Virus record (IMG/VR): IMGVR_UViG_3300042922_001018
Length of the DNA stretch: 64,000 bases
Reading direction: 5' to 3' (one strand)
Source: a virus
Taxonomy: Duplodnaviria; Heunggongvirae; Uroviricota; Caudoviricetes
Below, one piece after another: positions 12,238-29,317 of this stretch. Within the stretch, counting starts at the first letter, position 1. The number at the start of each line of letters is the position of its first letter. The translations under genes were made by a program, and so were the position numbers. A model generated the notes under the pieces. It did no database searches and had not been told where the DNA came from. It saw only the letters and a program-made list of their open reading frames with translations.

Positions 12238-12557
12238 GCTGCTACATACTCCTTCTGGGCGCGAAGGGATTCCATCTTGCCTGCACGCCTCGTCTGCTTG
12301 GTCTTCTTACGGCGTCCGTCGCGGTCAGTACACATCGGGCATCCACACGTAGAGACGTGGGAGAACCAGTCGTAGCGGCAGCGGAGACGCACGTACCGAG
12401 GGTTGTCGTGGAGGTACATCTCGCGGGCCTCTGCCATGGACGGCAGTTCGCAGGGCGCGCCATCGCGATGGTCATGGTCTTCCTCGAAACGGACCTTCGT
12501 GTCGGCCGTATCGAAAGCTCGAACGAGAGGAGGCCGAGTCTTACGAGTCCTGGACAT
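12234..12557 (-). CDS. basic MSRT-family protein, paralog 3
   Basis: MSRTRKTRPPLV, HDH..C..C..CGCPMC; leaderless promoter. Confidence 0.75.
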   Translation of the reverse strand: MSRTRKTRPPLVRAFDTADTKVRFEEDHDHRDGAPCELPSMAEAREMYLHDNPRYVRLRCRYDWFSHVSTCGCPMCTDRDGRRKKTKQTRRAGKMESLRAQKEYVAA

Positions 12558-12569
12558 GGCCTCAGTCTA

Positions 12570-13148
12570 TCACGATGCAGCGGGGAGGGATGTTGCCCCA
12601 GGCAATGTACAGGTTCCGAGGTAGTGCAGGCGCTCGTACGGGATGCCTTGCGACGATGCGTAGATGTCAGCCCAGCACTCGCTGTCGAGAGTTCCCATAC
12701 CGGTGGTTGTAGACCCGCCAACCGGCCAGGCTCCGCGAGCTTGAAGGATGTGCGCGTATTCGTGGATGAGGACGTAGACATGCTCGTCTTCGCCCATCTC
12801 CGGGGACAAGTAGATGCGCTCCGGGGAGGTGCCCATGTAGACGCAGCCGCCCTTGCTTATTGCGCCGTTGGCATCCGGCTGCGCGGCACAGTTCAGCTCC
12901 GGGTCTTCAGTGTAGACGAGCTGAACTCCGTCAGCTTCGATGCGCTCAGCCAGTTCGTCAGACGACAACACGGCGCTGCCGGTCACGACTTCGTCCTGCT
13001 TCGTGGTGCTCGACTCGGTGCCGAGGTACCAGCCGCCCATCAGCAGCGCCAGGCCGATGATGACGGCGATAGGGTACATCAGGATGCTTGTGCGCCGCTT
13101 CTCTGGCGGCGCCGCAATGATGTCGATGTCAGTGGTGACGGTGTTCAT
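12570..13148 (-). CDS. membrane-anchored HExxH zinc metallopeptidase-like protein
   Basis: TM then VLIHEYAHILQ...ECWAD. Confidence 0.75.
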   Translation of the reverse strand: MNTVTTDIDIIAAPPEKRRTSILMYPIAVIIGLALLMGGWYLGTESSTTKQDEVVTGSAVLSSDELAERIEADGVQLVYTEDPELNCAAQPDANGAISKGGCVYMGTSPERIYLSPEMGEDEHVYVLIHEYAHILQARGAWPVGGSTTTGMGTLDSECWADIYASSQGIPYERLHYLGTCTLPGATSLPAAS

Positions 13149-13858
13149 GCAGCCTTCGACTCTTCGGCCAACGCGGCCTCGACACGGGCAAGGTCTTCAG
13201 CGAAGTCAACTTCGATGGCAGTGTACGGCGTGATGTCAACCGGCTCGAAAGCGATACGCGACGCAGAAGCGGACAGCTCGATAGCGCGCTCGAAATAGTC
13301 CTGCTCGCGCACAGCATTCAGCCAGTACAGGAACTCGCCCTTGTCGTCGGCCGAGATGTAGTTGATGCCTACAGCTTCACCGAGAGCCACGGTGGGCGAG
13401 ATGTCCTTGGAGATGCGGTCGATGTGCCCGTACTCGTCCAGCGTGTACTTGACTTCCTCATCCGCTACCCGCGAGCGGTCAACCGCCACCCCGTTCCGGC
13501 CGGTCACAACGATGGGCTGAAACGCCCGAAGAACGCCTTCATCGAACACAAGGTCGCCGTTTACCCAGAGCACGCCTTCATCGAAGGGCGTCCCGTGCAT
13601 AGCGCCGAGTAGCGTCTTCGCGGTATTCGTTGAAGCGAAGTCCGCGTTGTAGTGCTTCCGGATGTCCGGGTAGGCGTCCACAATGTCTTCGACCTGATGG
13701 CCTACTGCAATCGTGATGGAGGCTTCGGGGAACACGGAACGAAAAGCTCGAAGCTGGCGCTCCAGGATGGTCGTGCCGTCGCCGACTGGCGTCAGAGACT
13801 TCGGGAACGGCTTGCCGAGACGCGTTCCCTTCCCCGCTGCCAGGATGACGATGTGCAC
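13145..13858 (-). CDS. NTP transferase (phosphocholine cytidylyltransferase-like)
   Basis: ILAAGKGTRL..PKSL, NGDLVF, EVDFAEDL. Confidence 0.85.
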   Translation of the reverse strand: MHIVILAAGKGTRLGKPFPKSLTPVGDGTTILERQLRAFRSVFPEASITIAVGHQVEDIVDAYPDIRKHYNADFASTNTAKTLLGAMHGTPFDEGVLWVNGDLVFDEGVLRAFQPIVVTGRNGVAVDRSRVADEEVKYTLDEYGHIDRISKDISPTVALGEAVGINYISADDKGEFLYWLNAVREQDYFERAIELSASASRIAFEPVDITPYTAIEVDFAEDLARVEAALAEESKAA

Positions 13859-13947
13859 GTCACCCAGGATACCATCACGCTCGCAGGACGGGCGGTTAGC
13901 CTACTCGGCGAGCCAGGAAGATGCCGACTGGCACGAGGTCGAATCCG

Positions 13948-14907
13948 TCATCTCCCCGACGCCGCAATCGACTGAGGAGGCACCACGGTCAGCGTGACGG
14001 TATCATCACGGCCTTCCAGGAGACGGGGACGCGCCTCGAACGTCTCTCGCAGCTCGTCATCCGAATGCTTCCGGATGTCCACCGATACCCACTCGCCGCC
14101 GTCCCAGTCCAGGCTCCGGTCCCACGGGCAGATGACGCGGCGCCACTTGTAGTGCGAGTGGCGTTCGGTGTCCGTCGGGTCAGTGGGGTTCACACTCGAA
14201 TACTGCATGACCATCGTGTTGTGGACCTTGCGTGCCGGGTCTGCTTCCAAGGCAAGGAAGTCCTCCGGTGCCAGACGCTCGACGACGAACTGGAACACAC
14301 GGAACACCTCGCCATGACCGACGGCCACCATGTTCTCCACACCGTCACGACGGTAGAAGGAAGTCATCAGCGACTCGACCCGGCCCCGCAGACCGGTCGC
14401 GAGCGACTCGCCGCCCTGCGGCTTCCAGTACCACTCGTGCAGCGAACGGACACGACGCGTTGCGTCATCCATCGCTCGGTGCGAAACGACCTCGCCCCAG
14501 TCGCGCTCGCGCAGACGGTCTTCGACGCGCCATTCGCCGTCCAGGTGGAGATGGAACGCCGTCTCACGGGTACGAACGTGAGGGGAGACGTAGAACCGGT
14601 CGAAGCCTGCGTGCGGAGTCCCCGCCTCGATGTACTCGCGGATACGCTCCGCGCGCTCGACACTTCCCATCGCTTCGGCGAACTGGAGAGCGTCCTGCGC
14701 TTCGCGGAGCGCTTCAGCGAACAGCCACTCGCCAGCCGCTTCTGCCTGCTCTACACCGAGCGGGGACAGACGCATGTAGCTGTCATGACGCCCATCGTAA
14801 GCGTCGATGGGCAGCTCGGTCTCACGTCCCGCCTTGATGAGGCGCTGCGCGACGTTCGCCTCGGACTCGCCGTGGCGGATGAGCGTGAGTCGTGTGGGGA
14901 GCGTCAT
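13948..14907 (-). CDS. histidine phosphatase family protein
   Basis: LIRHGESEAN, SPHVRTRETA, ERDWG, GES, VGHG. Confidence 0.9.
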   Translation of the reverse strand: MTLPTRLTLIRHGESEANVAQRLIKAGRETELPIDAYDGRHDSYMRLSPLGVEQAEAAGEWLFAEALREAQDALQFAEAMGSVERAERIREYIEAGTPHAGFDRFYVSPHVRTRETAFHLHLDGEWRVEDRLRERDWGEVVSHRAMDDATRRVRSLHEWYWKPQGGESLATGLRGRVESLMTSFYRRDGVENMVAVGHGEVFRVFQFVVERLAPEDFLALEADPARKVHNTMVMQYSSVNPTDPTDTERHSHYKWRRVICPWDRSLDWDGGEWVSVDIRKHSDDELRETFEARPRLLEGRDDTVTLTVVPPQSIAASGR

Positions 14908-14940
14908 GGCACCAGTGTACCACGACAGGACGAGAGCTGT

Positions 14941-15129
14941 CTACCGACGCTGTGTCTGAAGGTCGCGCCGTGCCGCAGCCGCGGACTTACCTTCACCGAC
15001 GATGAAGTGACCCTGGACGCTGCGGCCGGTCACGTAGTAGTTCCACCCGAGAGGCCACTTGCGCTTCTTCGCGAGCAACCGGAAAGTGGGGTGGTCCGGG
15101 AGGCGGTCGTACGAGCGAGTCGTTCTCAT
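14941..15129 (-). CDS. small basic hypothetical protein
   Basis: Coupled to macrodomain gene. Confidence 0.55.
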   Translation of the reverse strand: MRTTRSYDRLPDHPTFRLLAKKRKWPLGWNYYVTGRSVQGHFIVGEGKSAAAARRDLQTQRR

Positions 15130-15572
15130 CGGTCGAAAGTCCAGACCTCGATGTCAACACCGTGCTTCGTGGACAGAGCGTCATAGACAGGTTCCACATC
15201 ATCCCACTGGAGACCGCCGATGCCACAGCCGATGAGCGGAAGAGCGATGCGGTCGAACCCCTGGGTCGCGGCGTGGCCGAGAGCGCGGTCTAGGCCGTCC
15301 TCCAGCCATTCCAGACGCGCGTTCGCGCCGGGAGCGTCCTGCGACGCGATGTTGTACACGTCGGGCTTCTCCGGGTCTTTCCAATAGAACACGCGGCCCG
15401 GCTGGAGGAGCTTCTGCGCACAGTGAGCCGCGTACTGCTCATACATTGCCGGGTACTCACGGCGGAACCGCACCGCGATGCCTGCGCCCATGACACCGAA
15501 GACGTTGACACCATGGCCGAGAGCCGGAGCGTCCGAGTCGAACAAGTCGCCGGAGAAGTGGAGAAGGGTCAT
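15126..15572 (-). CDS. macrodomain (ADP-ribose processing) protein
   Basis: GDLF, HGVNVFGVMGAGIA, LPLIGCGIGGLQW. Confidence 0.9.
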   Translation of the reverse strand: MTLLHFSGDLFDSDAPALGHGVNVFGVMGAGIAVRFRREYPAMYEQYAAHCAQKLLQPGRVFYWKDPEKPDVYNIASQDAPGANARLEWLEDGLDRALGHAATQGFDRIALPLIGCGIGGLQWDDVEPVYDALSTKHGVDIEVWTFDR

Positions 15573-15611
15573 GCCGCTGAGCCTACCACAGTTTCATCGC
15601 GAGTAGGGTGC

Positions 15612-16136
15612 TCAGCTTCGGAAATGCGTGATGCCGAGCTGGGCCGCATGCAGGACCACTACGAAGTACATCGCGTCCTGCGAAACGCCAGACTCCTCCG
15701 CTACCCACTTCGAGAACTCCGAGTCGTACAGGCCGTCGAGACGGTTCTTCTCGGTGCTCGCGCCCGAGAGGTCAGCGCCACGGACTTCGGCGGTAACGGC
15801 CGAATCCGGCGCTGCCGCACCGATGTAGCCTAGGTTCCAGATGAAGGGTTCGGGGAGGCTCTCGTTCACCATTCGAGTGTTGATGTCAGCCGAGTTCAGG
15901 ATGCTGTCCCAGTAAGCGGTCTTCTGCGCATCTGTCGCCTCGATGCCGCGCGTGTTGAGCTGTGCTCCAATCGCGCGCTCAGAGATTTCGTACTCCTGGT
16001 CAGTCGTGTCAGTCACGCCGTCTTCCGTCGCGACTGATGGAGTCGGCGGAAGAGGAGGCGTCGAAGGTGCGCACGCGCTGAGCGTCAACGCCAGAGCGGC
16101 TGCGGAGACGAAGAGAACGAGACGATTACGAGGCAT
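15612..16136 (-). CDS. lipoprotein, family A
   Basis: Lipobox LSAC, Pro/Thr linker. Confidence 0.8.
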   Translation of the reverse strand: MPRNRLVLFVSAAALALTLSACAPSTPPLPPTPSVATEDGVTDTTDQEYEISERAIGAQLNTRGIEATDAQKTAYWDSILNSADINTRMVNESLPEPFIWNLGYIGAAAPDSAVTAEVRGADLSGASTEKNRLDGLYDSEFSKWVAEESGVSQDAMYFVVVLHAAQLGITHFRS

Positions 16137-16150
16137 GTACCCATCTTACC

Positions 16151-16741
16151 TTACGGAGTCAGCGATGAGAACTGTGGACCGCAGAGCGTGGCAAGACCCA
16201 TCTTGATGATGGGAGCATACCCGCGTTCAACGACCTCATCCGCGACCGCGTAGTTGAGAGCTTCCGCAGTCTCATTGATGATGCGCTGTGCCATCTGGTC
16301 GATAGGCGTCGCGGTCGTGTCTGCCTGCGCTTCTGCACATCCGACGTACAGAACGTTCAGGAGATAGTCGCCTGTCGGAGCGACGCCTTCGAGCTTCTCG
16401 ATGACCGACGCATACGTCTGCCCCTGGTCGTCGAGGATAGGCTCCCCGCCCAGGCCCGCCTGGCTGAGGAAGAGAGCCTCCGCCGTCGCGTCTCGCTCTA
16501 CGCCCTGCGGGTCCACGCCCTCACGGGGGAAAGTCTCCAGAGGTGACGCGCCCGGTGTAGGCGTCGCGTCCGGCGTCGTGGTGGGCGTAGGTGTCGCGGT
16601 CACGACAGGCGCGTCCGGCATCTTGATAGTGCCCCGAGTCGTAGAGGTCGGCGTGGGAGCAGGCTCAGGCGCAGAGCAACCGGCGAACAGAAGCGTCGCG
16701 GCTACAACGGCCGCTGCGCTAGCAACGGTCTTGAACTTCAT
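16151..16741 (-). CDS. lipoprotein, family A
   Basis: Lipobox FAGC; YLLNVLYVGC. Confidence 0.8.
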   Translation of the reverse strand: MKFKTVASAAAVVAATLLFAGCSAPEPAPTPTSTTRGTIKMPDAPVVTATPTPTTTPDATPTPGASPLETFPREGVDPQGVERDATAEALFLSQAGLGGEPILDDQGQTYASVIEKLEGVAPTGDYLLNVLYVGCAEAQADTTATPIDQMAQRIINETAEALNYAVADEVVERGYAPIIKMGLATLCGPQFSSLTP

Positions 16742-17379
16742 CCTCGGAAGACTCCATTTTCCAGGTCACGTCGAGCTTGCTCGTCGAACAGGGGGACACA
16801 GACGTACGAGTAGCTGGTCGTGGCCGCAGCCATGTACGCCGTGGAGAGTTCTGCATCCTCAGAGGAGGAGAAGCCCACCCACATCGGAACTTCGGCCAGC
16901 GCCTTAGTGAAAGCGTCATTCAGACTGAGGTTCTGGCTCTGGTATGCCTGCACAGCATTGCAGAGCTTGTACGTCAGGTTCAGCACGTAGTCGGTCGTGG
17001 GGGCAGTACCGCCCGCCTGGATGATTTTCTGGACCGGAAGCTCCTCAGTGCGGTCCGACGGCACGACGTAGGCCGAGTCGGTCTTCACACCGACGGCGAT
17101 GAGGGCTTCATCTTCGAGAATGGGGTATTGCGGAAGACCGCCCGTCTGGACTCCGCTCGCAGGAAGGATTTCCGTTGACGGTGCAACCAGCTCTTCCGGC
17201 TCTTCCGCAGGTGACTCTGACGGTTCCGAAGATGATGTGGGGTCAGCGCCCGGAGATTGAATGCCGCCAGGGTCCGTGGGCAACGGCCCAGGCGTGTTCG
17301 TGGTTGGCGCACACGCAGTCAGCATCAGGGCGACGCTCACTGCGGCGAGAATGCCGGGGAGAACCTTCAGCTTCTTCAT
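16738..17379 (-). CDS. lipoprotein, family A
   Basis: Lipobox LTAC; YVLNLTYKLC. Confidence 0.8.
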   Translation of the reverse strand: MKKLKVLPGILAAVSVALMLTACAPTTNTPGPLPTDPGGIQSPGADPTSSSEPSESPAEEPEELVAPSTEILPASGVQTGGLPQYPILEDEALIAVGVKTDSAYVVPSDRTEELPVQKIIQAGGTAPTTDYVLNLTYKLCNAVQAYQSQNLSLNDAFTKALAEVPMWVGFSSSEDAELSTAYMAAATTSYSYVCVPLFDEQARRDLENGVFRG

Positions 17380-17921
17380 TCCGCACCCTCCTTCGGCGTG
17401 TACCCATCGAACGGAGTCAGCACGGGTTCACAGAGGAGCGACATTCCGCGGAACATCAGTTCACTGTAGACGTTGGCCTGCCGCGACTCAGCCGCGTAGC
17501 CGGTGACTTCGGGGAGCTTCGCGTAGAGGGACTCGACGAGAGCCTGGATGTTCTCAGCTTGACCGGTCTGCTGCTTGGCCTGGTCGCAACCCCAGTAAGT
17601 GAGGTTGAGCGCGTATTCCGCCGTGGGTACCGTGGCACCGCTCTCCTCAGCATAGTCGGGGAAGCTGAGTGCGCCTGGCTCTGGTTCGGCACTGGGAACG
17701 TCGCCGAGACTAGCGAAGCTCAACATCTGGTTCTCAGCTTCGGTGTTGCGCTCGAACCCGATGGAGTCCACCTCTGTCTCCGAGATGACCTCAGTGCTGG
17801 GAGCGACCGCCGGAGCAGGGGTGCTGGTCACGTCGGGCGGAAGGGGAGGCTCGGAAGCGGTGCAGCCCGCAAGCAGGAGCGCAGCGACGAGCGGTACGCC
17901 TACAGCGATAAGTCGCTTCAT
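17376..17921 (-). CDS. lipoprotein, family A
   Basis: Start MKRLIAV with AGGAG RBS; lipobox LAGC; YALNLTYWGC. Confidence 0.8.
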   Translation of the reverse strand: MKRLIAVGVPLVAALLLAGCTASEPPLPPDVTSTPAPAVAPSTEVISETEVDSIGFERNTEAENQMLSFASLGDVPSAEPEPGALSFPDYAEESGATVPTAEYALNLTYWGCDQAKQQTGQAENIQALVESLYAKLPEVTGYAAESRQANVYSELMFRGMSLLCEPVLTPFDGYTPKEGAE

Positions 17922-17966
17922 CGGTGCGCTCCTGTCTTGACGGCCGCGGATTTCACAACCGTGTTG

Positions 17967-18038
17967 TGGAGAGGGTGGGACTTGAACCCACATCCTTACG
18001 CTGAAGAACGCGTTGCTCTGAACCTGAGCTACCTCCCC
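17967..18038 (-). ncRNA. tRNA-like RNA with irregular anticodon arm
   Basis: Normal acceptor, D and T arms; ACGC/GCGT stem closing 8-nt GTTCTTCA. Confidence 0.7.
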
Positions 18039-18126
18039 GAGGACTGGCGGGCAAGCGCCCGCCAGCTAGAGCAAAGCTCTACGTGAACAGTGTAGCACAC
18101 GCGGAATGCTCCATAGTGGATGAAGT

Positions 18127-18327
18127 TCAGAGGGGTCCGTGCTCAGCTTCCCAAGCCGCCCACTCTTCTGGGGTCTTCGGTCGTTCGCGTTCGAGCCAGT
18201 AGTCGAGCGTACCGTCTTCGTACGCCTTCTTGACTTCCAGGTACGTGTCGTAGCGACCGAGACCCACTCCGACATCAACGCCCGCGTCGAACTGTGGGTC
18301 GCTGTGCGGCTTCTGCATGTCTGCCAT
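18127..18327 (-). CDS. small hypothetical protein
   Basis: MADMQKPH...; GAAAGGA RBS. Confidence 0.6.
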   Translation of the reverse strand: MADMQKPHSDPQFDAGVDVGVGLGRYDTYLEVKKAYEDGTLDYWLERERPKTPEEWAAWEAEHGPL

Positions 18328-18341
18328 ATCGTTCCTTTCTG

Positions 18342-18415
18342 TGCAGCTAAGAGGACTTGAACCTCTGACCTCCACCGTGTCAAGGTGGCGCTCTAACCGC
18401 CTGAGCTATAGCTGC
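18342..18415 (-). tRNA. tRNA-Val(GAC)
   Basis: Cloverleaf; loop TTGACAC. Confidence 0.92.
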
Positions 18416-18768
18416 GTGATGCCCTAGCGAGCGACGCTCGCGTCGGACTTCACATGCGTTCGGTGAACGATGTGATGCCCTTGGAGCCTGCGCCGCGGTC
18501 GGCTCCAGAAGCGGTGAGCAGGGACTTTGCTCCCGGTGGACAGCCCGCACCTCCGCGGAGGTCGTTGCAACAGCAGGCCGTTAGTTCGCCAGAGACAACT
18601 CACACCCACCCCGCGCTCTGACAGACGGATTGTGGGAGAGCTACGACACGACACTCGACTTGTCCTCGTCGTGTTGCAGCCGTCTACAGCCTACCACGCG
18701 TGGTAGACATTGTGCCCTAGCGAGCGAAGCCCGCACCGGACCCGACATGCGGCCGTTGGCCGATGGTG

Positions 18769-18841
18769 TGCCCTCGACAGGAATCGAACCTGCGACCTCT
18801 GGTACCGGAAACCAGCCTTCTATCCACTGAAGTACGAGGGC
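18769..18841 (-). tRNA. tRNA-Arg(CCG)
   Basis: Cloverleaf; loop TTCCGGT. Confidence 0.9.
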
Positions 18842-18896
18842 AAAGGAAAACGCGGCCCGGTATCTAATCGGACCGCGTCTCCACCCCACGCCCCTT

Positions 18897-18971
18897 GATT
18901 GCAAGAGGGGACTTGAACCCCTGGCCCATACGCCTTGTGGCGTCGCTCTTCCAACTGAGCTACAAGCAATC
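18897..18971 (-). ncRNA. tRNA-like RNA with 4-nt loop in place of anticodon loop
   Basis: Good D and T arms; ACGCC-ACAA-GGCGT. Confidence 0.72.
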
Positions 18972-18997
18972 GCAGGATGTGGAGTTATTGCGAGGGT

Positions 18998-19064
18998 GAG
19001 AGACCCTGGGATTCGAACCCGGCGCCCGAAGGCGCTTCACCCGCGTGCTCGCGTTCAGTCTCTC
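18998..19064 (-). ncRNA. minimal tRNA-like RNA with UUCG-capped arm
   Basis: GAGAGAC/GTCTCTC stem, GGGTTCGAATCCC T arm, GCGCC-TTCG-GGCGC hairpin. Confidence 0.6.
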
Positions 19065-19142
19065 GGCCGAATGGTTACAGCCATCCGGTTGTATCGCCCG
19101 CTGTAACGAGCGACATGTACAGCGTACCACACGTCTCAGACA

Positions 19143-19412
19143 TCACTGTCGTTCGTCGGAACGCTCGTTCAGGAAGGCGTGAAGCGCCTCATCGGACACC
19201 TTCGCGCGTACCGTCCGGGCATGCACCCAGCGCTTGATGTGGTTGGCATCATTCCACAGACCGCGGAACGCGGCGGGGAGGAAGTAGAACAGCGGCAGGA
19301 GAATCCAGAAACCGCCTGGCAGCCCGTTGTAGAGGAGGGGCATGGCGAAAATCCCCAGGAGCAGGGTCGCGATGAAAGTGGCTACGGGCCACCGTGACAT
19401 GAGCGCGCGCAT
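19143..19412 (-). CDS. small membrane protein
   Basis: 2 TM; TGGTACACT-N6-ATG. Confidence 0.65.
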   Translation of the reverse strand: MRALMSRWPVATFIATLLLGIFAMPLLYNGLPGGFWILLPLFYFLPAAFRGLWNDANHIKRWVHARTVRAKVSDEALHAFLNERSDERQ

Positions 19413-19443
19413 AGGGCGAGTGTACCACGGTTCCGCCGAAAGC

Positions 19444-19759
19444 GAACACACCTGTAAGCCGGGTTCTGTCCAGGACGCGAGTCCCTGGGCTGCCATCTTT
19501 CTGAAGCGCAGAGCGCCCCGCGGCTTAGCCGCTGCCACTTACCCGTCCATCATCGAGGCACGACGCCCTAGGACTGTTTGTGTTGCACCGGTCCTCACCC
19601 TACTTCTTAGGCTGGGCTTAGTGGTATGAAGGTGTCAAGTTCGGCACGTTAGTCACCGAATCAGTAACCAACGTGCCGACTCTGACACTCCCACATGGAT
19701 GTCGTGTTGGTGCCCGGACTTTCCTCAACGCTTATGCGCTGCGACAGCCTGGTGTGTTC
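19444..19759 (-). ncRNA. rnpB: RNase P RNA with atypical specificity domain
   Basis: GAGGAAAGTCCGGGC and GACAGAACCCGGCTTA universal P4 motifs; P1 GAACACACC/GGTGTGTTC; P5 GCACC/GGTGC. Confidence 0.92.
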
Positions 19760-19837
19760 TGGAGGCGCTGACGGGATTTGAACCCGCGATTGTACGGTTT
19801 TGCAGACCGTTCCCTTTGGCCGCTCGGGCACAACGCC
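19760..19837 (-). tRNA. tRNA-Cys(GCA)
   Basis: Cloverleaf, U73, encoded CCA. Confidence 0.93.
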
Positions 19838-19842
19838 GTGTA

Positions 19843-20418
19843 TCAGTCGTCTTCTGACGAACCGAAGAGGGAGGACAGCGGCCCCGGCTGTCCAGATTCA
19901 GGAGGGTTCTCGATGCCATGCACTGACAAGGCCGTGAAGAAGGTACAGATGGCGAACGCGAACGCGAAGATACCCACAGCCATCTTCCTGGCGTCCGAGA
20001 TTTCGCCAAGGGTGTCATCAAGACGCTCGCGGGGGAACTTGTCCCAGGCTTCCGGGTTCTCGGCCTTGTACGTTCTGACGAGCGACATGAGCAGCGAATC
20101 GGTCAACGGGGTGAACTTCTTCACCGCCCGGCTGTCGGCCGTCGGAAGCGCGTACATGCTCGACGCTGAAGGCAGGAGGATGCGTTCCAGCCGCGAGTAG
20201 ACATCACCGGGGCGGTAGATGACGACGGTCGCTGTAGATGATGCCCCAATGCTGGAAGCGTTCGTCGTCATCTTCACCCCGGACTTCGGGTCGATGATGA
20301 CGAACTTCCGGTCGATGACTCGGAGGATGTAGCGGTCTCCGAAGACGTGGTCTGCGGACGTTGCGATGTCCTCCCGGTAGTAAACCCGTTCCAGGCCGGT
20401 GATTTCGAGCTTAGCCAC
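19843..20418 (-). CDS. membrane protein (C-terminal TM)
   Basis: Probable GTG start 20418 with GGAGG RBS. Confidence 0.65.
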   Translation of the reverse strand: MAKLEITGLERVYYREDIATSADHVFGDRYILRVIDRKFVIIDPKSGVKMTTNASSIGASSTATVVIYRPGDVYSRLERILLPSASSMYALPTADSRAVKKFTPLTDSLLMSLVRTYKAENPEAWDKFPRERLDDTLGEISDARKMAVGIFAFAFAICTFFTALSVHGIENPPESGQPGPLSSLFGSSEDD

Positions 20419-20641
20419 GGTCAACCTCCAGTCGGCGAATGACGAGCCAGTACATCGCCTGTTGGAATCCGATGAGAACCGTGAGCGACACAATGGCCAT
20501 CGTGGCGTACGCGAAGATGTCGCCGTCGAGGAGGGACACGAAGTCGAAGATGTACGGCACGCCGCGCACGAGGAGCAGGAACACTGCGCCGATGGCGAAG
20601 AAGACGATACCGGCGCCGAGCGCCTGAAGCTGCTGCTTCAT
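20411..20641 (-). CDS. small membrane protein
   Basis: 2 TM, coupled. Confidence 0.7.
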   Translation of the reverse strand: MKQQLQALGAGIVFFAIGAVFLLLVRGVPYIFDFVSLLDGDIFAYATMAIVSLTVLIGFQQAMYWLVIRRLEVDRG

Positions 20642-20994
20642 CAGTTGACCTTCCCGATGGCGAAGATGACTTCGCGGGCGATGACAAAGAGAACCAGCGG
20701 CACGCCACCGGCAAGAAGGACCAGGCCGATGATGTCCCAGAACGGTCCAGGAACTCGCTCGGTGGCATACACGAGGCTCGCGGTGAGTGTACCCAGAAGG
20801 TACGACACGATGGCTGCGGCCGGGACTGCGGCAAGGACACCGAGCGCTTTCAAGCTAGCCCGGCCCATCGTGTCGGGTTCCCGGTCAGCGTCGGCGTACT
20901 TCAGATACGCCGACCGCTTCCAGTAGGCCAGTGCGGACATCACCCCGATGAGCAGGAAGATGAGCACCGCGTGGACGATGGACATTGCGAACAT
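20641..20994 (-). CDS. membrane protein (3 TM)
   Basis: Hydrophobic; TGGTAGGCT upstream. Confidence 0.7.
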   Translation of the reverse strand: MFAMSIVHAVLIFLLIGVMSALAYWKRSAYLKYADADREPDTMGRASLKALGVLAAVPAAAIVSYLLGTLTASLVYATERVPGPFWDIIGLVLLAGGVPLVLFVIAREVIFAIGKVN

Positions 20995-21039
20995 GTTCCG
21001 AGCCTACCACGAGTCTCGGCCGTCCGCCCAGTCGTTACG

Positions 21040-21113
<74 letters not shown>

Positions 21114-21194
21114 TGGAGCCATCGGTTGTTACGGAGTCCCATGACTTACTCCGGGCGCGAGAGGCGAGCGCTACGCCCCTCGTTTACGCCGTTG

Positions 21195-21265
21195 CTCCCC
21201 GTCCAGGACTCGAACCCAGGCGACTGGGTCCAACGCCCAGCGTGCTGCCATTACACCAACGGGGA
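21195..21265 (-). tRNA. tRNA-Gln(TTG), G33 variant
   Basis: Gln-type D arm; loop CGTTGGA. Confidence 0.82.
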
Positions 21266-21467
21266 ATAGGGTATCCTGACGAGCTACCCTGGAGCGTTCT
21301 CCGTGACCGTGCAGACCCGAAGGCCCGGACAGTGCGGCAAGAACGACATCGGCACGCCCTCGCCAGAGCGCCTTAGACGCCCTGACTCTCTTTTCGGGGG
21401 CTGCGACCCTGCCTGATGTGTTTTCGCGGCGTACGCCCGCTTGTGGCGCCGTTCCGTGCATCGTGCG

Positions 21468-21540
21468 CTCCCCCGCCTGGACTCGAACCAAGAACAACTG
21501 AACCAGAATCAGCCGTGTTACCGAATTACACCACGGGGGA
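21468..21540 (-). tRNA. tRNA-Gln(CTG)
   Basis: Cloverleaf; loop TTCTGGT. Confidence 0.92.
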
Positions 21541-21600
21541 ATAGGAGTGTCCGTGGAATCTGACACTCCTGAAGATGTCCGAGTTTACGGACAAGTTGAG

Positions 21601-21765
21601 GACCGGCGCTCTGCCTGGTTGAGCTACCACCCGCGTGTGCGAGGTGAATCCGCCGACGCCGCTAGCAAGCGTCTTGGCGAACCGTTACGGTCTTCCCGAT
21701 TCATCGTGCGCACGAGTCGTCGTTCAGACCGGAACGCCGGGATTTGAACCCGTATCTCCGGCCGG
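21601..21765 (-). ncRNA. circularly permuted tRNA mimic (YrlA-like) with ~90-nt acceptor-loop insert
   Basis: T arm (ACGGGTTCAAATCCCGG) precedes D arm (TAGCTCAACCAGGCAGAGC); ends GCCGG/CCGGT pair. Confidence 0.65.
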
Positions 21766-21840
21766 TGGGCGTGACGGGACTTGAACCCGCGAATCGTTCC
21801 ATTATGAGTGGAGTGCCTTGACCAGCTTGGCTACACGCCC
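21766..21840 (-). tRNA. tRNA-CAT (Ile2 or Met)
   Basis: Cloverleaf; loop CTCATAA. Confidence 0.88.
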
Positions 21841-21844
21841 ATGC

Positions 21845-21890
21845 CAACTATACACATTCGTTATCATGTAACAACAAATGTGTATAGTTG
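21845..21890. repeat. AT-rich 14-bp inverted repeat
   Basis: CAACTATACACATT / AATGTGTATAGTTG. Confidence 0.8.
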
Positions 21891-21894
21891 ACGA

Positions 21895-21969
21895 TGGAGC
21901 CGACAGCGGGGATTGAACCCGCGACCCCCGTATTACGAGTACGGTGCTCTACCACTGAGCTATGTCGGC
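21895..21969 (-). tRNA. tRNA-Thr(CGT)
   Basis: Cloverleaf, encoded CCA. Confidence 0.93.
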
Positions 21970-21972
21970 ACT

Positions 21973-22176
21973 GCCAGGGTGCTACGGGATTCTACCTCTC
22001 CAAGTGTGAGGCCAGCCACCGCCGTCGCGATGACCGCTGCTTTCGCAGTCCGTAGTCGTTCTTACACGGACGAGGGCTTGGAGTCCCTGCCGTCAAACGG
22101 GAGATTACGCAACTGACCTTTCGGTGACGAGCTTTACTGAGACAACCGGAGCCTCAATCCCGCCGTACAACCTGGC
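21973..22176 (-). ncRNA. structured ~200-nt RNA, possibly manA-motif-like
   Basis: Ends pair (GCCAGGTTG/CACCCTGGC); contains GTTGTCTCAGTAAA and GNRA hairpins; flanked by tRNAs; no credible ORF. Confidence 0.45.
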
Positions 22177-22187
22177 TTCCCGTTCTG

Positions 22188-22260
22188 TGCCACCAGCGGG
22201 GTTCGAACCCGAGACCTCGCCCTTACCATGGGCGCGCTCTACCAACTGAGCTATGGCGGC
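22188..22260 (-). tRNA. tRNA-Thr(GGT)
   Basis: Cloverleaf; loop ATGGTAA. Confidence 0.9.
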
Positions 22261-22289
22261 ATCGCCCGATTGGGACCGGGCCTATCCTG

Positions 22290-22361
22290 AGCCACCAGTG
22301 AGGATTGAACTCACGACCTCTTCCTTACCAAGGAAGCGCTCTACCACTGAGCTATGGCGGC
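22290..22361 (-). tRNA. tRNA-Thr(GGT)
   Basis: Cloverleaf; loop TTGGTAA. Confidence 0.92.
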
Positions 22362-22364
22362 ATG

Positions 22365-22705
22365 ACCCAGCCAGCTAGCCGACCGTCCGGAAGGCTGCCG
22401 CTGGGCGCATGTTCGGGCTACTGCCCGGACTTCATGGTATCAGACAGTGTGCGATTAGGCCAAACACTCTGACGGTAGTACATCCGGCTACGCGGTTACC
22501 AACCCGCTTTCGGTTTCGGAGCGCGTTCGCCGCACGCTCCTACTCGATACGACCGGCCTTCCCCTGAGTCCGTGGTTCAGGGCATCCCGTGGGGTCTGTG
22601 TATGCGACTTCAACGAGCGTGTTGCAACACGCACCGTCCGCGACAAGCGCGGCCCCCTCGTGACTCCTTAGATGATGACGTTCTAGGCCAACATTCTGAC
22701 GGATA
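22365..22705 (-). ncRNA. candidate ~340-nt structured RNA starting with a 23S rRNA L11-site-like segment
   Basis: GAATGTTGGCCTAGAACGTCATCATCTAAGGAGT at 5' end; multiple hairpins; no credible ORF. Confidence 0.45.
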
Positions 22706-22708
22706 CCG

Positions 22709-22778
22709 TGCCGGAGTGGGACTCGAACCCACGCCCTCCAGCCCTTTCAAGGCGGCGCTCCCCTGGAGCTGTCCAGCT
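22709..22778 (-). ncRNA. degenerate tRNA-like RNA (Phe-like GAA loop)
   Basis: T arm intact, shortened D loop, bulged anticodon stem. Confidence 0.6.
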
Positions 22779-22793
22779 AGACCTTTCAGTCCG

Positions 22794-22867
22794 TACCTGC
22801 GGGGAGGCTTGAACTCCCGACCTCGCGATTATGAGTCGCGCGCTCTCACCAACTGAGCTACACAGGC
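22794..22867 (-). tRNA. tRNA-CAT (elongator Met or Ile2)
   Basis: Cloverleaf; loop CTCATAA. Confidence 0.9.
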
Positions 22868-22899
22868 ATAAGGGCGCGAGCGCCCCCGTGGAGAGGCTA

Positions 22900-23778
22900 T
22901 CACGCCTCGCCAGGTTCCGGTGTCCAGAAGTCCGCGATGAGACCCTTGTGGTCGCTCACCGGCAAATCTCCCAGCTCCGGGTCGTAGAACGTCTCCGAAC
23001 CGAACGTCCGGGCCGCGGCAGGCTGCCCCGCGCTACCCCAAGCCCATTCGTAAGCCATGATGTAGTCGATGCGCCGCTTCGGCGTCTGCTCCGGACGGTA
23101 GATGGAGCCAACCGACTCGAAGGTGCGCTTCGACCAATGATTCACGTCACCTGACGTGTGCCCCGATTGTTCCGGGTCACCGCACTCGTTCCACGCATCC
23201 AACCAGAGCGTCGAATCATCTTCTACACCCAGGTCCAGACCGCGAAGATACCGAACCGTCCGAGATTCGGGTACAGCGTTCAGGTCTCCCGCAAGCAGAA
23301 TGATGGGACGGTGCTGCCGGTGGTGTCCACCGGGCTGACGAGTGAAGATGTCGTGAGCGTTCACGCTCACATGCCGCGCTTCCTTCATCCGGGACTTCTC
23401 GAACCCGGCGCCCCACTTGAAGTGCGCGTTGAAGATGTAGACGGCGCGGCCATCGACTTCCGATTTCGACACGAGTACCGGCACGTTCACGTCCGGCGTC
23501 TGCATCTTCACGTTCAGCTCGTGCACGGCGATGGGGTGACGGGACAGGGTGATGTTCCCGTACTCACCTTTCTTCGTTTCGCCGATGACCTTGTAATCCA
23601 TCCCCAGCTTGAAGCTCAGGACATCACCGACGTAGAAGCCCGCCGCCTCAGGGCCGGGCACTTCCTGAAGGCACAAGAAGTCGAGGTCTTCGAACTTCAG
23701 CGTGTCTACGAGAAGGTCAAGCCGCTCTTTGAGCAGCTTCGGCTCTTTGAGCAGGTTCAGGGTCGCAACGCGTATCAC
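22900..23778 (-). CDS. endonuclease/exonuclease/phosphatase (EEP) family protein
   Basis: ATLN, LQEV, AGDLN, RIDYI, SDH motifs. Confidence 0.92.
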   Translation of the reverse strand: MIRVATLNLLKEPKLLKERLDLLVDTLKFEDLDFLCLQEVPGPEAAGFYVGDVLSFKLGMDYKVIGETKKGEYGNITLSRHPIAVHELNVKMQTPDVNVPVLVSKSEVDGRAVYIFNAHFKWGAGFEKSRMKEARHVSVNAHDIFTRQPGGHHRQHRPIILLAGDLNAVPESRTVRYLRGLDLGVEDDSTLWLDAWNECGDPEQSGHTSGDVNHWSKRTFESVGSIYRPEQTPKRRIDYIMAYEWAWGSAGQPAAARTFGSETFYDPELGDLPVSDHKGLIADFWTPEPGEA

Positions 23779-23810
23779 GTCACGACCCTATCACGAAACT
23801 GCGCCCTACG

Positions 23811-24047
23811 CTACTGAGCGATAGGCTGCGCGGTCTTACGCGCGTGGACTTCGAGCGGCGATTCCGCCGGGAGTCGGGCACCGTACACCTGAGCGTAATC
23901 GGCAGCACGGTCGCGCTCCTCGCGGAGCATGTCCATGTCGTCACGCGTCGCAGGCGTATCGCGAGACTCGATGTAGTTTCGGGTGGCGATGTACGCCTCC
24001 ACAGGGTTGAGCTTTCCGCGCTTCTTCCCTACGCCTTTCAAAGACAT
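23811..24047 (-). CDS. small hypothetical protein
   Basis: MSLKGVGKKRG...; GAAAGGA RBS. Confidence 0.6.
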   Translation of the reverse strand: MSLKGVGKKRGKLNPVEAYIATRNYIESRDTPATRDDMDMLREERDRAADYAQVYGARLPAESPLEVHARKTAQPIAQ

Positions 24048-24104
24048 GATGAATCCTTTCTGGGGCCAGTCTAGTGGCCGTCGTCGTGCGCTGCGATGCA
24101 GCGC

Positions 24105-24180
24105 TGGTGCCCCCGACCCGAATCGAACGGGCAACCGACGGATTAGAAGGCCGTTGCTCTATCCGTTGAGCTACGGGGGC
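24105..24180 (-). tRNA. tRNA-Arg(TCT)
   Basis: Cloverleaf, encoded CCA. Confidence 0.92.
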
Positions 24181-24193
24181 GTAGAAGAACTTG

Positions 24194-24266
24194 TGCCGAC
24201 TGTGGGACTCGAACCCACAACCCCCGCATTACAAGTGCGGTGCGCTACCAGTTGCGCCAAGTCGGC
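24194..24266 (-). tRNA. tRNA-Thr(TGT)
   Basis: Cloverleaf; loop CTTGTAA. Confidence 0.92.
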
Positions 24267-24335
24267 ATGCGACGGGAGGCCTCACCCGCTTGGGGCAACC
24301 TACGCGACCGAAGCCGCCGCTCTTCGGCCGAACCG

Positions 24336-24407
24336 AGCGGATGACGAGATTCGAACTCGCGACCCTCACCTTGGCAAGGTGATGCGCTACCACTGCGCTA
24401 CATCCGC
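24336..24407 (-). tRNA. tRNA-Gly(GCC)
   Basis: Cloverleaf; loop TTGCCAA. Confidence 0.93.
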
Positions 24408-24452
24408 GTATGCAACTACTCTAGCACGCGCTCGTTGCCCTTCACGTTACTG

Positions 24453-24528
24453 CGGAAGCGGTAGGGGTCGAACCTACAGACCTTCTCGGCACCGGATTAC
24501 GACCGGCTGCTCTCCCCAGCGCGCCTCC
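24453..24528 (-). ncRNA. tRNA-like RNA: Ser-like acceptor/G73, long variable arm, loop TCGTAAT, abnormal D arm
   Basis: GGAGGCG/CGCTTCC-G; T arm GTAGGTTCGACCCCTAC. Confidence 0.62.
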
Positions 24529-24608
24529 ACGACTCTCCAACCGGTATCGGTGTCGCTTCTGACGCTGCCTGATTGAACTGCACTTCCATGAGACTCCGTG
24601 GAGTCTTG

Positions 24609-24681
24609 TGGGACCAACGGGGATTGAACCCGTGACCTTTCGATTTTCAGTCGAACGCTCTACCAACTGAGCTACAGCCCC
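24609..24681 (-). tRNA. tRNA-Phe(GAA)
   Basis: Cloverleaf; loop CTGAAAA. Confidence 0.93.
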
Positions 24682-24855
24682 ATCCGGCCCGCCCAGCTCA
24701 ACCGCCATGAGCTATCGGGCAGACCTTCCCGTGAACGCGGTGCTTCGCCGCAATGTCCCCGCCTGGGAGCACGAGCACTCCCACCGAGTAAGGTTGCGAG
24801 AGGGGACGGAATCCTCCCACATCCAGACCACGGACCTAAGCCCGTGACCGTAGCG

Positions 24856-24929
24856 TAGCCGAGGGGAGACTTGAACTCCCGACCTTTGCATTATCAGTGC
24901 AACGCTCTAACCAACTGAGCTACACGGCT
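24856..24929 (-). tRNA. tRNA-Ile(GAT)
   Basis: Cloverleaf; loop CTGATAA. Confidence 0.92.
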
Positions 24930-25058
24930 GTAGCCAGGGTAGCCTTACGGCTAGCTTCACGAGTCGCCCTGGCGCCGACTCACTACCCTTCTGACCACTC
25001 CGGGTGGGGCGCTCGCAGACTAGGCGTTTGCCTGTTCTCAGCGCTCTCATTCGAGCTG

Positions 25059-25132
25059 TTGCGGGAGGTGGATTTGAACCACCGGCCTCCAGGTTATGAG
25101 CCTGGCGGGCTACCGAGCTGCCCTACCCCGCG
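25059..25132 (-). tRNA. tRNA-fMet(CAT)
   Basis: C1:A72 mismatch, CGCGGGG start. Confidence 0.9.
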
Positions 25133-25315
25133 TCAAGGTCACACGTGACCTGCTACTGTATTCGTGTCCTGAGCGCCCGGTTCATAACGCCGAGCAGGAC
25201 GTTTTCATTGCGAGGAGTCACCGAGGGCCGCAGCATTACTCGGTAACCCAGTTAGCTGGAGAGCTTACGCCGACGCACCAACTGTTCCTACGTGACCAGT
25301 GTAGCACACTAGTTG

Positions 25316-25388
25316 TGACCCCAGCGGGATTCGAACCCGCGCTAACGCCGTGAAAGGGCGCCGTCCTGGGCCGCTAAACGATGGGGCC
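25316..25388 (-). tRNA. tRNA-Glu(TTC)
   Basis: Cloverleaf; loop CTTTCAC. Confidence 0.92.
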
Positions 25389-25570
25389 AGGTGGTTCCCG
25401 AGCGAAGAATCCGGCTCGGGAACCAGTTCGCAGCGACCCCAGCTATCAGCCCACCCAGCGCAGTGAACCTATCCGAGACCGGCGCTCTGCCGGGCTGCTG
25501 ACATTGAGCTTATCACACCGCGAGCGAGACGACAAGCTAAGACACGCCGGAGATGCACTCCGACGCCATG

Positions 25571-25643
25571 TGACCCCAGCGGGATTCGAACCCGCGTTAC
25601 CGCCGTGAGAGGGCGACGTACTAGGCCGCTATACGATGGGGCC
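25571..25643 (-). tRNA. tRNA-Glu(CTC)
   Basis: Cloverleaf; loop CTCTCAC. Confidence 0.92.
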
Positions 25644-25665
25644 ATACGAACCGCAGTGCGGTCCT

Positions 25666-26172
25666 TCAGCTCCCCATGTGCGCGTCCACAAGCTCGTCAA
25701 GGAACTCGCGGAGACGGTTACGGGGAACCTTCTCGATACGAGCTGCTCCGGCCTGGAGCTGCTCGTCGAAGTGTTTCAATAGTGCCTCTGCGTCGAGGTG
25801 CAACCGACGCGCCAGCCGAGGCACGTCTTCGTTCTTCTTGTACTCGGCCGGGCCGACGGGGGTCGGCGCGCTATCGGCTGACGCAGCGCTCACGATACGG
25901 ATGCCCCGCAGTCGTGAGAGGCGGTGGTTATACCCCGCCGGTTGCAGCGCGTGTATCGCGTCATTCGTGACGAACCCTAGAAGCATCTTGTCCCGTTGAG
26001 CGGCCCAAGCGGACACCTCGTCGTAGGAGCGAGGGATGCTCAGGTATCGCATGAACTCTGCAACATCAGCGGATACGTGTCTTCCCGCGTACCCTGGGCC
26101 GGGGACGATTCGCCTCCCGTCCAGATGGCCGACGAGGAAGTAAGTCCGCTGGTGCTTAGCTGCAAGAGTCAC
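25666..26172 (-). CDS. hypothetical protein
   Basis: 168 aa; TGATACACT-N6-GTG leaderless start. Confidence 0.65.
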   Translation of the reverse strand: MTLAAKHQRTYFLVGHLDGRRIVPGPGYAGRHVSADVAEFMRYLSIPRSYDEVSAWAAQRDKMLLGFVTNDAIHALQPAGYNHRLSRLRGIRIVSAASADSAPTPVGPAEYKKNEDVPRLARRLHLDAEALLKHFDEQLQAGAARIEKVPRNRLREFLDELVDAHMGS

Positions 26173-26325
26173 CGGACCAGTGTATCAAGCCTGTACAGGC
26201 GGGGACGGTACGACATTACGCATCTCCGGTTCGCGGGGCAACCCGCCTGTCAGTTCTATCCGCTTCGAGCGGTTTTCTCATGAGCCTGCGTTTACGCCTG
26301 AATCGTGAGAAAACTCGAAGCGTTG

Positions 26326-26411
26326 CGGAGGGCAAGGGATTTGAACCCTTGTGCGCTTGCACGCTCACCGTTTTCAAGACGGGCACCTTAGGCCAACTCA
26401 GTCAGCCCTCC
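26326..26411 (-). tRNA. tRNA-Ser(TGA)
   Basis: Long variable arm, G73. Confidence 0.92.
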
Positions 26412-26511
26412 ATGCTTGCGTCCGCGGACCCGCTCAACCCACGATGCTCTGCTGCGTTTCCGCCCTGAAGCTTGTCGTGAACGTCGCGCCCCGCGGACGC
26501 AAGTTGTGACA

Positions 26512-26596
26512 GTCTCGGCAAGAGGATTCGAACCTACTCTTGGGGTAGCTGACCCCACGGCTCCACGCCGCTACTTTTTCTCGAATCGAACGAGAC
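26512..26596 (-). ncRNA. highly derived tRNA-like RNA
   Basis: GTCTCG/CGAGAC terminal stem, AGGTTCGAATCCT T loop, TGGGG-TCAGCTA-CCCCA arm. Confidence 0.45.
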
Positions 26597-26687
26597 GCAA
26601 CCAGCACCGAGACTGCAAGAGATTCCAGGAGCCTCTCCACGAGAAGCGCCCTGGAACATACATCTAGGTCTCGCGAATGAGACCCTG

Positions 26688-26776
26688 CGGAGCGAGAGGG
26701 ATTTGAACCCTCGATGCCCTTGCGGGCATACCACCTTTCCAGGGTGGCGCACTAGGCCGGACTATGCGACCGCTCC
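26688..26776 (-). tRNA. tRNA-Ser(GGA)
   Basis: Long variable arm, G73. Confidence 0.93.
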
Positions 26777-27199
26777 AGGCTCCGACCTCCCCGGCAGATT
26801 GAACCGCCAGTAACCCGTTGTCGGAATCACGGGGATTTTGGACCTGGCACCAGACCCAAGAAAATGAGGGGCACAAACCATGTGCCAACCCTTGTCTTTC
26901 CCATCGCTTTCTTCGCTACGCGTACGCTTCACGATGAGGGTGTCAAGACCGCCCCCGAATCGAACGGGGAACATCCTCCGTGAGTATGAAGCCTCTGACA
27001 GCGTCATACCCTCTACCCGGTAGTGGGTGCCGGACTCGAACCGAACTCCTAAGAGCGCGCATTGTTCCTAAAACCGGCCATGTCGTGAGGAACGCCTCCC
27101 CGCGACAGGACCAGCCCAATGGTGCCGGGCGCCTGCCTGTTCTACCCTCTACCGGCAGCCACCGCACGGAAGAGCGACCAACCTGCGTGATGACTGTCG

Positions 27200-27272
27200 T
27201 ACCCCGACTCGGATTCGAACCGAGAACCTCCGGTGTTTGAAGCCGTCGCCTCTGCCATTGGGCTACCAGGGT
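27200..27272 (-). tRNA. tRNA-Leu(CAA), short variable loop
   Basis: Leu-type D loop; loop TTCAAAC; weak anticodon stem. Confidence 0.78.
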
Positions 27273-27317
27273 GTATGAGACAACTTTACAGGATGTCTCA
27301 GTCTGTTGTCAAGTCGG

Positions 27318-27701: not shown

Positions 27702-27740
27702 GCGGCTAGTCTACATCATGAAAACGACTTGCGTCAGACG

Positions 27741-27829
27741 CGGAGCGAGAGGGATTTGAACCCTCGGTTCCCTTACGGGAACACCACCTTAGCAGGGTGG
27801 CGCACTAGGCCGGACTATGCGACCGCTCC
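27741..27829 (-). tRNA. tRNA-Ser(GCT)
   Basis: Long variable arm, G73. Confidence 0.93.
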
Positions 27830-27883
27830 ATTCGGCTGGATTAAGCGCCAGCCCGCTGTGTGGATTCCAACAGCAGAATCTCG

Positions 27884-29314: not shown

Positions 29315-29317
29315 TCG

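Follow-up and report, generated by a model that had tools for sequence, protein, structure and literature searches.

A putative RNase P RNA without a canonical specificity domain in the tRNA array of a large phage

RNase P RNA, a ribozyme found universally in cells, binds the tRNA elbow through an interleaved T-loop module formed by its CR-II and CR-III regions within P7–P14. The consensus of these two regions, reportedly given by Chen and Pace in 1997, is AGARA and UGNAA. Archaeal type T RNAs indicate that loss of the specificity domain (S-domain) is tolerated in nature (PMC3579882). These RNAs, from Thermoproteaceae, have an archaeal catalytic domain with a P2 of only 3 bp, a shortened P15 and no P18, and are associated with the archaeal proteins Pop5, Rpp30 and Rpp29. 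The catalytic domain (C-domain) of the E. coli RNA is active alone, ~100-fold below the full RNA (PMC5839562, Table 1). This engineered RNA (Eco CP RPR) acts in trans, is stimulated by the C5 protein (RnpA) and requires a P6-like pairing (PMC5839562). In a literature search that lay mostly outside subscription journals and included a 2024 RNase P review and a 2020 huge-phage survey, no published virus-encoded RNase P RNA was found, and no published natural bacterial-type RNase P RNA without a specificity domain. A virus-encoded RNase P RNA therefore appears to be unpublished.

The window analysed here is a 64-kb stretch of viral DNA (IMG/VR record IMGVR_UViG_3300042922_001018), which, judging by its genes, is a fragment of a large, uncultured, actinophage-like phage, probably of an actinobacterium. 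It encodes homologs of rIIA and rIIB, a transglycosylase, a ribonucleotide reductase subunit, UvrD-like and SNF2-like helicases and, at 56187–57410, an RtcB that is closest to the RtcB proteins of Microbacterium phages (54% identity). Most other ORFs match no known family. Hallmark genes, sequenced phage relatives and the lack of a cellular housekeeping set mark the window as part of a phage genome, and no virion structural genes are present in the 64 kb. Megablast of positions 1–20000 and tblastn of a 1146-aa ORF against phages gave no match. An ORF at 47931–48713 (−) contains a GmrSD C-terminal endonuclease domain (E 1.7e-15) and may encode a nuclease that acts in phage-host or phage-phage conflict. 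The full window sequence is present in three soil-metagenome DNA runs, possibly its source samples, and no RNA run was listed with it.

A co-oriented RNA gene array extends over 17966–36897 (−) and comprises ~53 tRNAs, a tmRNA, an SRP-like RNA and a YrlA-like RNA, the presumed substrates of the RNA described below. The default Rfam scan of the window found 50 tRNAs, the tmRNA and the small SRP RNA, all on the (−) strand at ~17.9–36.9 kb, and ARAGORN found 53 tRNAs and the tmRNA. Most of the array tRNAs score as canonical, and a 3′ CCA is encoded in only 4 of the 53. Four tRNA-like genes, all on the (−) strand, are aberrant (17966–18038, 18897–18969, 22708–22778 and 34572–34646): ARAGORN assigns two-base 'anticodons' to two of them, which we interpret as anticodon loops of abnormal size, and the Rfam tRNA model misses the other two. 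The four may be degenerate tRNAs or tRNA-like RNAs. The tmRNA (29315–29701 (−), 116.8 bits, tag peptide ANATRNDLALAA) is located inside the tRNA array. The small SRP (4.5S-like) RNA (26412–26503 (−)) scores 40.4 bits against a gathering score of 40, with a well-matched domain IV motif, UCAGGGCGGAAACGCAGCAG; as it lies directly 5′ of tRNA-Ser(TGA), RNase P cleavage of this tRNA would form the SRP RNA 3′ end. An SRP RNA gene is unusual in a phage. The YrlA-like (Y-RNA-like) RNA (33081–33192 (−)) stays below the gathering score of 69 with 37.5 bits (local E 8.5e-7), has clear T-arm-like and D-arm-like modules and overlaps an odd 'tRNA-Thr' called by ARAGORN at 33139–33208. In some bacteria, an RtcB gene adjoins Y RNA genes. 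A sub-threshold LOOT RNA (32836–32941 (−), 33.6 bits; gathering score, 46.4) lies in a gap of the tRNA array and matches the CCUAAACC...GGCAUGG core.

Within this array, at 19439–19760 (−), is a gene for a putative RNase P RNA. In a permissive Infernal cmscan of positions 19000–20200, its 322 nt matched RF00010 (bacterial RNase P class A) with 91.5 bits and an E-value of 3.1e-28, model positions 1–367 being covered, and RF00010 was the top-scoring model of the RNase P clan. The initial annotation had placed an RNase P RNA, encoded by a virus-like element, at 19444–19759. The Infernal limits are at most 5 nt off, the earlier ones corresponding to the outermost P1 pairs (P1 starts at 19759), and the score together with the phage gene context bears out that a virus-like element carries the gene. 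The 91.5 bits lie below the Rfam gathering score of 100 bits for RF00010, and the gene is missing from the default, gathering-threshold Rfam scan of the window. Both are explained by the ~140 model positions of the S-domain that the alignment jumps by local ends, with 113 unaligned nucleotides in their place. Taken together, these matches identify the window RNA as an RNase P RNA derived from bacterial type A. Its 5′ end abuts a tRNA-Cys(GCA) gene (19763–19837 (−); Rfam tRNA 55.9 bits, also called by ARAGORN), and the ribozyme starts right after the CCA encoded by this tRNA (19762–19760), as read directly in the sequence. On the other side, no downstream tRNA defines the 3′ end of the RNA in the window phage. 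No promoter-like sites were found near the ribozyme gene, and terminator-like sites occurred at chance level only. A small hydrophobic ORF (19143–19397 (−)) is located immediately downstream of the ribozyme, and a gene for a 39-aa 'membrane protein' follows the ribozyme-plus-tRNA unit of Microbacterium phages, so the synteny of a small downstream ORF may be conserved between them.

A blastn search against phage genomes returned four records only, all from 192-kb Microbacterium foliorum phages (A3Wally, Zooman, Big4 and one more). In these phages a ~215-nt version of the RNA lies between two tRNA-Arg genes, 0–4 nt from each, and matches RF00010 end to end with 51–72 bits; the GenBank records leave the gene, at about 2930–3150 of the four loci, without annotation. 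The tRNA isotype labels of A3Wally differ from those of its relatives at equivalent positions. A pattern search for the family added two contigs from IMG/VR (171 and 202 kb) and five from metagenomes. Two of these, L203 and L206, come from sister phages that are syntenic with the window and 77–79% identical to it over the tRNA array. Two further candidates (L202 and L208) were discarded as chance pattern matches without P4 strands. A covariance model built for the stretch from P4 to P15 (R1, 150 positions) scored 153 bits on the window gene, 125–158 bits on the 13 members and at most 31 bits on all other RNase P RNAs compared, and had no match in 883 kb of unrelated viral DNA, which argues that the family is discrete. 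A scan of IMG/VR with the 14-mer GCAACACAAACAGT returned chance loci only, none of them R1-positive, and became a negative control.

The family is not the only RNase P RNA found in phage tRNA arrays. Among the IMG/VR loci with both P4 strands, 18 of 47 were inside tRNA arrays, mostly on contigs above 100 kb (100–500 kb), and the distance between the P4 strands ranged from 129 to 279 nt, which suggests that phage RNase P RNAs range from full-size to minimal. The other RNAs share the location within tRNA arrays but belong to different sequence families (at most 31 bits with R1), several of them retaining the whole S-domain or a partly reduced one. The tRNA array of a 190-kb IMG/VR contig (L174) contains an RNase P RNA (10583–10816 (+)) with only 129 nt between its P4 strands. 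It keeps P7–P9 and a CR-II-like stretch and then jumps to the 3′ side of L15, lacking P12–P14, the return strand of P5 and the 5′ strand of P15; it represents either a defective copy or a further minimal design.

The elements of the catalytic domain are given with window coordinates, all on the (−) strand. The 5′ strand of P1 (19751–19759) pairs with 19444–19452, with compensatory changes in 8 of 9 pairs, and that of P2 (19743–19749) pairs with 19488–19494 (4 of 7 pairs). The P3 hairpin (19726–19741) is placed by the cmscan alignment, and its pairs are kept in relatives. CR-I (19713–19725), composed of J3/4 and the P4 5′ strand with its bulged U, pairs with 19456–19463; all cells of P4 are paired, both sides change in 4 of 8 pairs, and L201 and L204 contribute further double changes. 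P5 is formed by 19709–19712 and 19586–19589 (3 of 4 pairs compensatory). The segment right after P5, 19701–19705, pairs with the five-base loop of P17 (19560–19564) in the P6 pseudoknot, which reads ACGAC/GUCGU in the window and is represented by six different complementary sequence pairs across 10 homologs, with 100% pairing and compensatory changes in 4 of 5 pairs. J5/15 (GCAA), P15, P16, P17 and L15 occupy 19536–19585, as placed by cmscan and by covariation in P15 and P16 (2 of 4 pairs in the latter). L15 reads CGGGUA in the window, with an invariant GGU at 19541–19543. CR-IV (J18-2, AGAAAGAU, 19495–19502) contains invariant A, G, A, G, A, U and G columns, and CR-V (ACAGAACCCGGCUUA, 19455–19469), formed by J2/4 and the P4 3′ strand, is an exact match to the bacterial consensus. 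At the P18 position (19503–19532) there are two small hairpins (19520–19532 and 19503–19519), present only in the window, L203 and L206, with the loops UAA and UCU and with compensatory changes in the second; a P18 with a GNRA loop that would dock into P8 was thus not found, and outside the window subgroup the hairpins are absent. A P19-like hairpin in J2/4 (19471–19487) is shared by the same three RNAs, with one compensatory pair, and has another form in L201.

Covariation in homologs, which had been suggested as a check together with the comparison to RNase P models by Infernal (the latter gave the end-to-end RF00010 match with the S-domain skipped), was counted on ten homologs with a structure written from the window sequence. 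Standard pairs were formed in 91.8% of the cells, compared with 80.7% when shuffled and 35–38% when the partners were slid by 1–3 columns. Pairs with changes on both sides numbered 31, compared with 16.3 ± 2.3 in the shuffled controls (0 of 500 reached 31) and 4–8 in the slid ones. P1, P2, P4, P5, P6 and P16 are backed by covariation in 10–13 homologs, and both pseudoknots, P4 and P6, covary. CR-I, CR-IV, CR-V, the bulged U of P4, two adenosines of J5/15 and the GGU of L15 are invariant, although the cores are only 65–75% identical between subgroups, and the core of the window RNA is 91% identical to that of L203 and L206, well above the surrounding array. The conservation of the core above its flanks, the covariation of the fold and the invariance of the catalytic residues indicate that purifying selection maintains the RNase P fold and residues needed only in catalysis. 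By this comparison, the catalytic domain is complete and under selection. The initial annotation had listed P1, P2, P3, both P4 strands, P5 and P15 with GGU, all of which are present in the Infernal alignment, and its 'plausible' P6 is now supported by the compensatory changes and represents a trait of type A, not of type B.

The region between the P5 strands is built to the same plan in all members: a P6 strand, a 3-bp helix at the P7 position, a 4-bp GUGG/CCAC stem, a strand of 26–28 nt and the return strand of the P7-like helix. The P7-like helix (19697–19699, paired with 19592–19594) was read from motif-anchored positions, because the MAFFT and covariance-model alignments place the Microbacterium phages 1–2 nt out of register in the conserved strand, so that the helix appears only 53% paired in the alignment count. 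The window group has U-A as the outer pair of this helix, most Microbacterium phages have G-C, one of their close relatives has C-G, and four sequences have A·A; the helix is probably real, as far as these substitutions can tell. The stem at the P8 position (19621–19694) is formed by GUGG 19691–19694 and CCAC 19621–19624, is invariant in 13 sequences and encloses a 66-nt arm (19625–19690). In line with the ~60-nt near-perfect hairpin described in the initial annotation, the arm contains inverted repeats at 19632–19659 and 19661–19688 and folds with −43.7 kcal/mol (z = −7.9 relative to shuffles). The length of the corresponding loop is 5 nt in the Microbacterium phages, 19 nt in the sister phage L206, 23–30 nt in L201, L204 and L161, 66 nt in the window and L203, and 71 nt in L205; whatever its length, the loop content folds as a helix in every member. 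The arm is 58–60% identical between the window and its sister phages, compared with the 91% of the core. The 66-nt hairpin is thus best described as a lineage-specific, fast-evolving extension of the P8-position stem, predicted not to be essential to the design. It is not a dispersed repeat, as the arm sequence occurs nowhere else in the window.

Direct reading between the P5 strands finds no AGARA or UGNAA strings, in agreement with the earlier observation that CR-II/CR-III motifs are missing there. A normal P7–P14 domain, which would have spoken against the annotation, does not appear in the alignment either, since ~140 positions are skipped. Of the canonical P7–P14 S-domain, what is left is the P7-like helix and one hairpin, and the comparison indicates that the canonical P9–P14/CR-II/CR-III specificity domain is lost. 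The proposal that the S-domain was replaced by the hairpin therefore stands only in its first part: the canonical domain is missing, but the hairpin is not its substitute, as its loop varies between 5 and 71 nt, with only 19 nt in L206.

The position of P9–P14 is taken by a near-invariant strand of 26 nt, UAAGCCCAGCCUAAGAAGUAGGGUGA (19595–19620 (−)), which is 26–28 nt long in 13 of 13 members and is the most conserved segment of the RNA. Flanks included, the window and L201 do not differ in this strand at all (100% identity), although their cores are 67% identical, and it differs from the version of the Microbacterium phages by three substitutions and two one-base insertions. The strand is found in this family only, and not in the other RNase P RNAs of phage arrays. 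Infernal leaves it unaligned to RF00010, and in an nhmmer search it showed no similarity to 46 other RNase P RNAs (best E 1.3). The strand was inspected by eye for stretches resembling CR-II (GC.CAG) and CR-III (GGGUGA..), but in view of the nhmmer result homology to these regions is not claimed. Internal helices (GCCC/GGGU or CAC/GUG) had no register valid in both subgroups, and no internal covariation was found in the strand. Complementarity to the phage tRNAs was likewise rejected: the mean duplex energy was −17.4, compared with −16.0 ± 1.1 for shuffled sequences, 9.5% of which equalled it. The strand may be a minimal binding site for substrate or protein, or a structural brace. A further-reaching idea, which we regard as tentative, is that the strand, clamped by the P7-like helix and the P8-position stem, forms a new compact module that functionally replaces the ~150-nt S-domain by binding the substrate or recruiting a phage protein. 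If so, this would be a new natural RNase P RNA architecture, evolved in phages, and one small ribozyme, co-transcribed with its substrates, would mature the tRNAs, tmRNA, SRP RNA and Y-RNA-like RNA of the array.

When the phage RNA is compared with bacterial type A RNAs (E. coli M1 RNA, rnpB), P1–P5, the P4 pseudoknot with CR-I and CR-V, CR-IV, the J5/15 adenosines, P15–P17 with the L15 GGU and the type-A-specific P6 pseudoknot are common to both. Unlike type A, it has no P9–P14, CR-II/CR-III, GNRA L18 or P8 receptor logic, is encoded inside a phage tRNA array and scores below the curated threshold of RF00010. Archaeal type T RNAs (PMC3579882) are similar in being natural, in having a complete catalytic domain with P6 while most of the S-domain is missing, and in being missed by the standard Rfam model. 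However, the phage RNA has bacterial signatures (a covarying P2 of 7 bp, the L15 GGU loop and bacterial CR sequences), its context is that of an actinophage, and its best model is class A. The resemblance to type T is convergent and no sign of membership. With Eco CP RPR (PMC5839562) it shares the absence of an S-domain and the P6-like pairing. The activity of that RNA is a precedent that the phage design can work, but it is artificial and lacks the conserved strand, P7-like clamp and P8-position stem kept in the phage family.

We consider it likely that the window encodes a functional, type A-derived phage RNase P ribozyme RNA, which would be made from the polycistronic array and, with host RnpA, would cut the 5′ leaders of phage RNAs. 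The ribozyme gene is co-oriented with the RNA genes and packed against them, which suggests that it would be transcribed within the tRNA/tmRNA/SRP array and freed by the enzymes that process tRNA ends; in the Microbacterium phages, the RNase P cut of the downstream tRNA would itself make the ribozyme 3′ end. Substrates would be bound by the catalytic domain, through the P4 core, J5/15 with the −1 nucleotide, the L15 GGU with any 3′ CCA and, after assembly with host RnpA, the protein with the leader. Host RNase P would in this way be supplemented, or the phage made independent of it, when ~55 RNase P substrates are made at once, and an extra RNase P under its own control is plausibly what the phage gains. 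Expression, catalysis and this benefit are inferred. Four points weigh against this reading: in E. coli constructs, an RNA without the S-domain is ~100-fold less active; the L15–CCA contact is doubtful, as with CCA encoded by 4 of 53 tRNAs it may be unavailable at 5′ cleavage; the Rfam score is below the gathering score; and the RNA 3′ end has no downstream tRNA. The suggestion that the ribozyme has an altered substrate range for odd tRNA-like RNAs was not supported, as most tRNAs of the array are canonical and the same mini-ribozyme occurs in ordinary arrays of cultured phages. In a weaker form of this idea, the tmRNA, 4.5S-like and YrlA-like RNAs may be non-tRNA targets; for tmRNA and 4.5S RNA, processing by RNase P is well established (PMC11143913).

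The protein partner is a point on which another explanation has to be weighed. A search for RnpA (PF00825), which found the protein in 10 of 14 control genomes, found none in A3Wally, Zooman and the two IMG/VR contigs (89–96% complete). Since the RNA keeps all parts that contact RnpA and the complete relatives encode no RnpA, we infer that the host protein is the likely partner of the window RNA. The same ribozyme might instead work with a dedicated phage protein, with the strand and/or the arm binding a protein that supplies recognition of the tRNA elbow. Such a role would suit a strand that is conserved above all other parts of the RNA, is unlike any known RNase P element and shows neither internal covariation nor significant complementarity to phage tRNAs; most neighbouring ORFs belong to no known family, and the authors of the type T study leave open an undiscovered specificity subunit (PMC3579882). 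However, no candidate protein was found, the RnpA-binding parts of the C-domain (P3, P4, J18/2, J2/4) are fully kept, and the free variation of the arm in sequence and length means that it cannot be a conserved binding site. We regard a dedicated phage protein in place of host RnpA as unlikely, although a phage protein cofactor may be encoded outside the window fragment.

The kept RnpA-binding surface, combined with the missing domain for efficient tRNA binding, would also suit an RNA that is no enzyme itself and acts as a decoy, soaking up host RnpA or pre-tRNA and shutting down host tRNA maturation. This we consider very unlikely, because the bulged U of P4, the adenosines of P4 and J5/15 and the GGU of L15, which are needed only for chemistry or substrate docking, do not vary between lineages that are 65–75% identical, and because RNase P activity, not its loss, is what a phage with its own ~53 tRNA genes needs. 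The sub-threshold Rfam score, the large internal deletion relative to type A and the L174 copy, which looks internally deleted across P12–P15, could be read as signs of a functionless sequence, be it a decaying pseudogene, a chance piece of host rnpB or an assembly chimera. Such an origin is highly improbable given the compensatory covariation in every core helix and a core that is more conserved than its flanks. Moreover, the relatives show no random, non-compensatory decay, the gene keeps its position in three soil phages that share synteny and also in cultured phages with complete genomes, and the full window sequence is present in the three independent runs (possibly source samples). A functional ribozyme thus remains the preferred reading.

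In summary, the window adds a discrete family of RNase P RNAs with a near-invariant strand, identifies the hairpin as a variable and probably dispensable arm and shows the ribozyme alongside genes for tmRNA, an SRP-like RNA and a YrlA-like RNA. Such RNase P RNA genes at present escape annotation pipelines and the Rfam thresholds. Because four members belong to Microbacterium foliorum phages in culture, their expression, activity and the effect of knock-outs can be tested directly. The family would represent a natural experiment on the minimal RNA for accurate tRNA 5′ maturation and on substitutes for reading the tRNA elbow. More generally, RNase P RNA recurs, in miniaturised form, beside the tRNA genes of phages, which would extend the known phage takeover of translation (tRNAs, tmRNA and, here, SRP RNA) to RNA processing.
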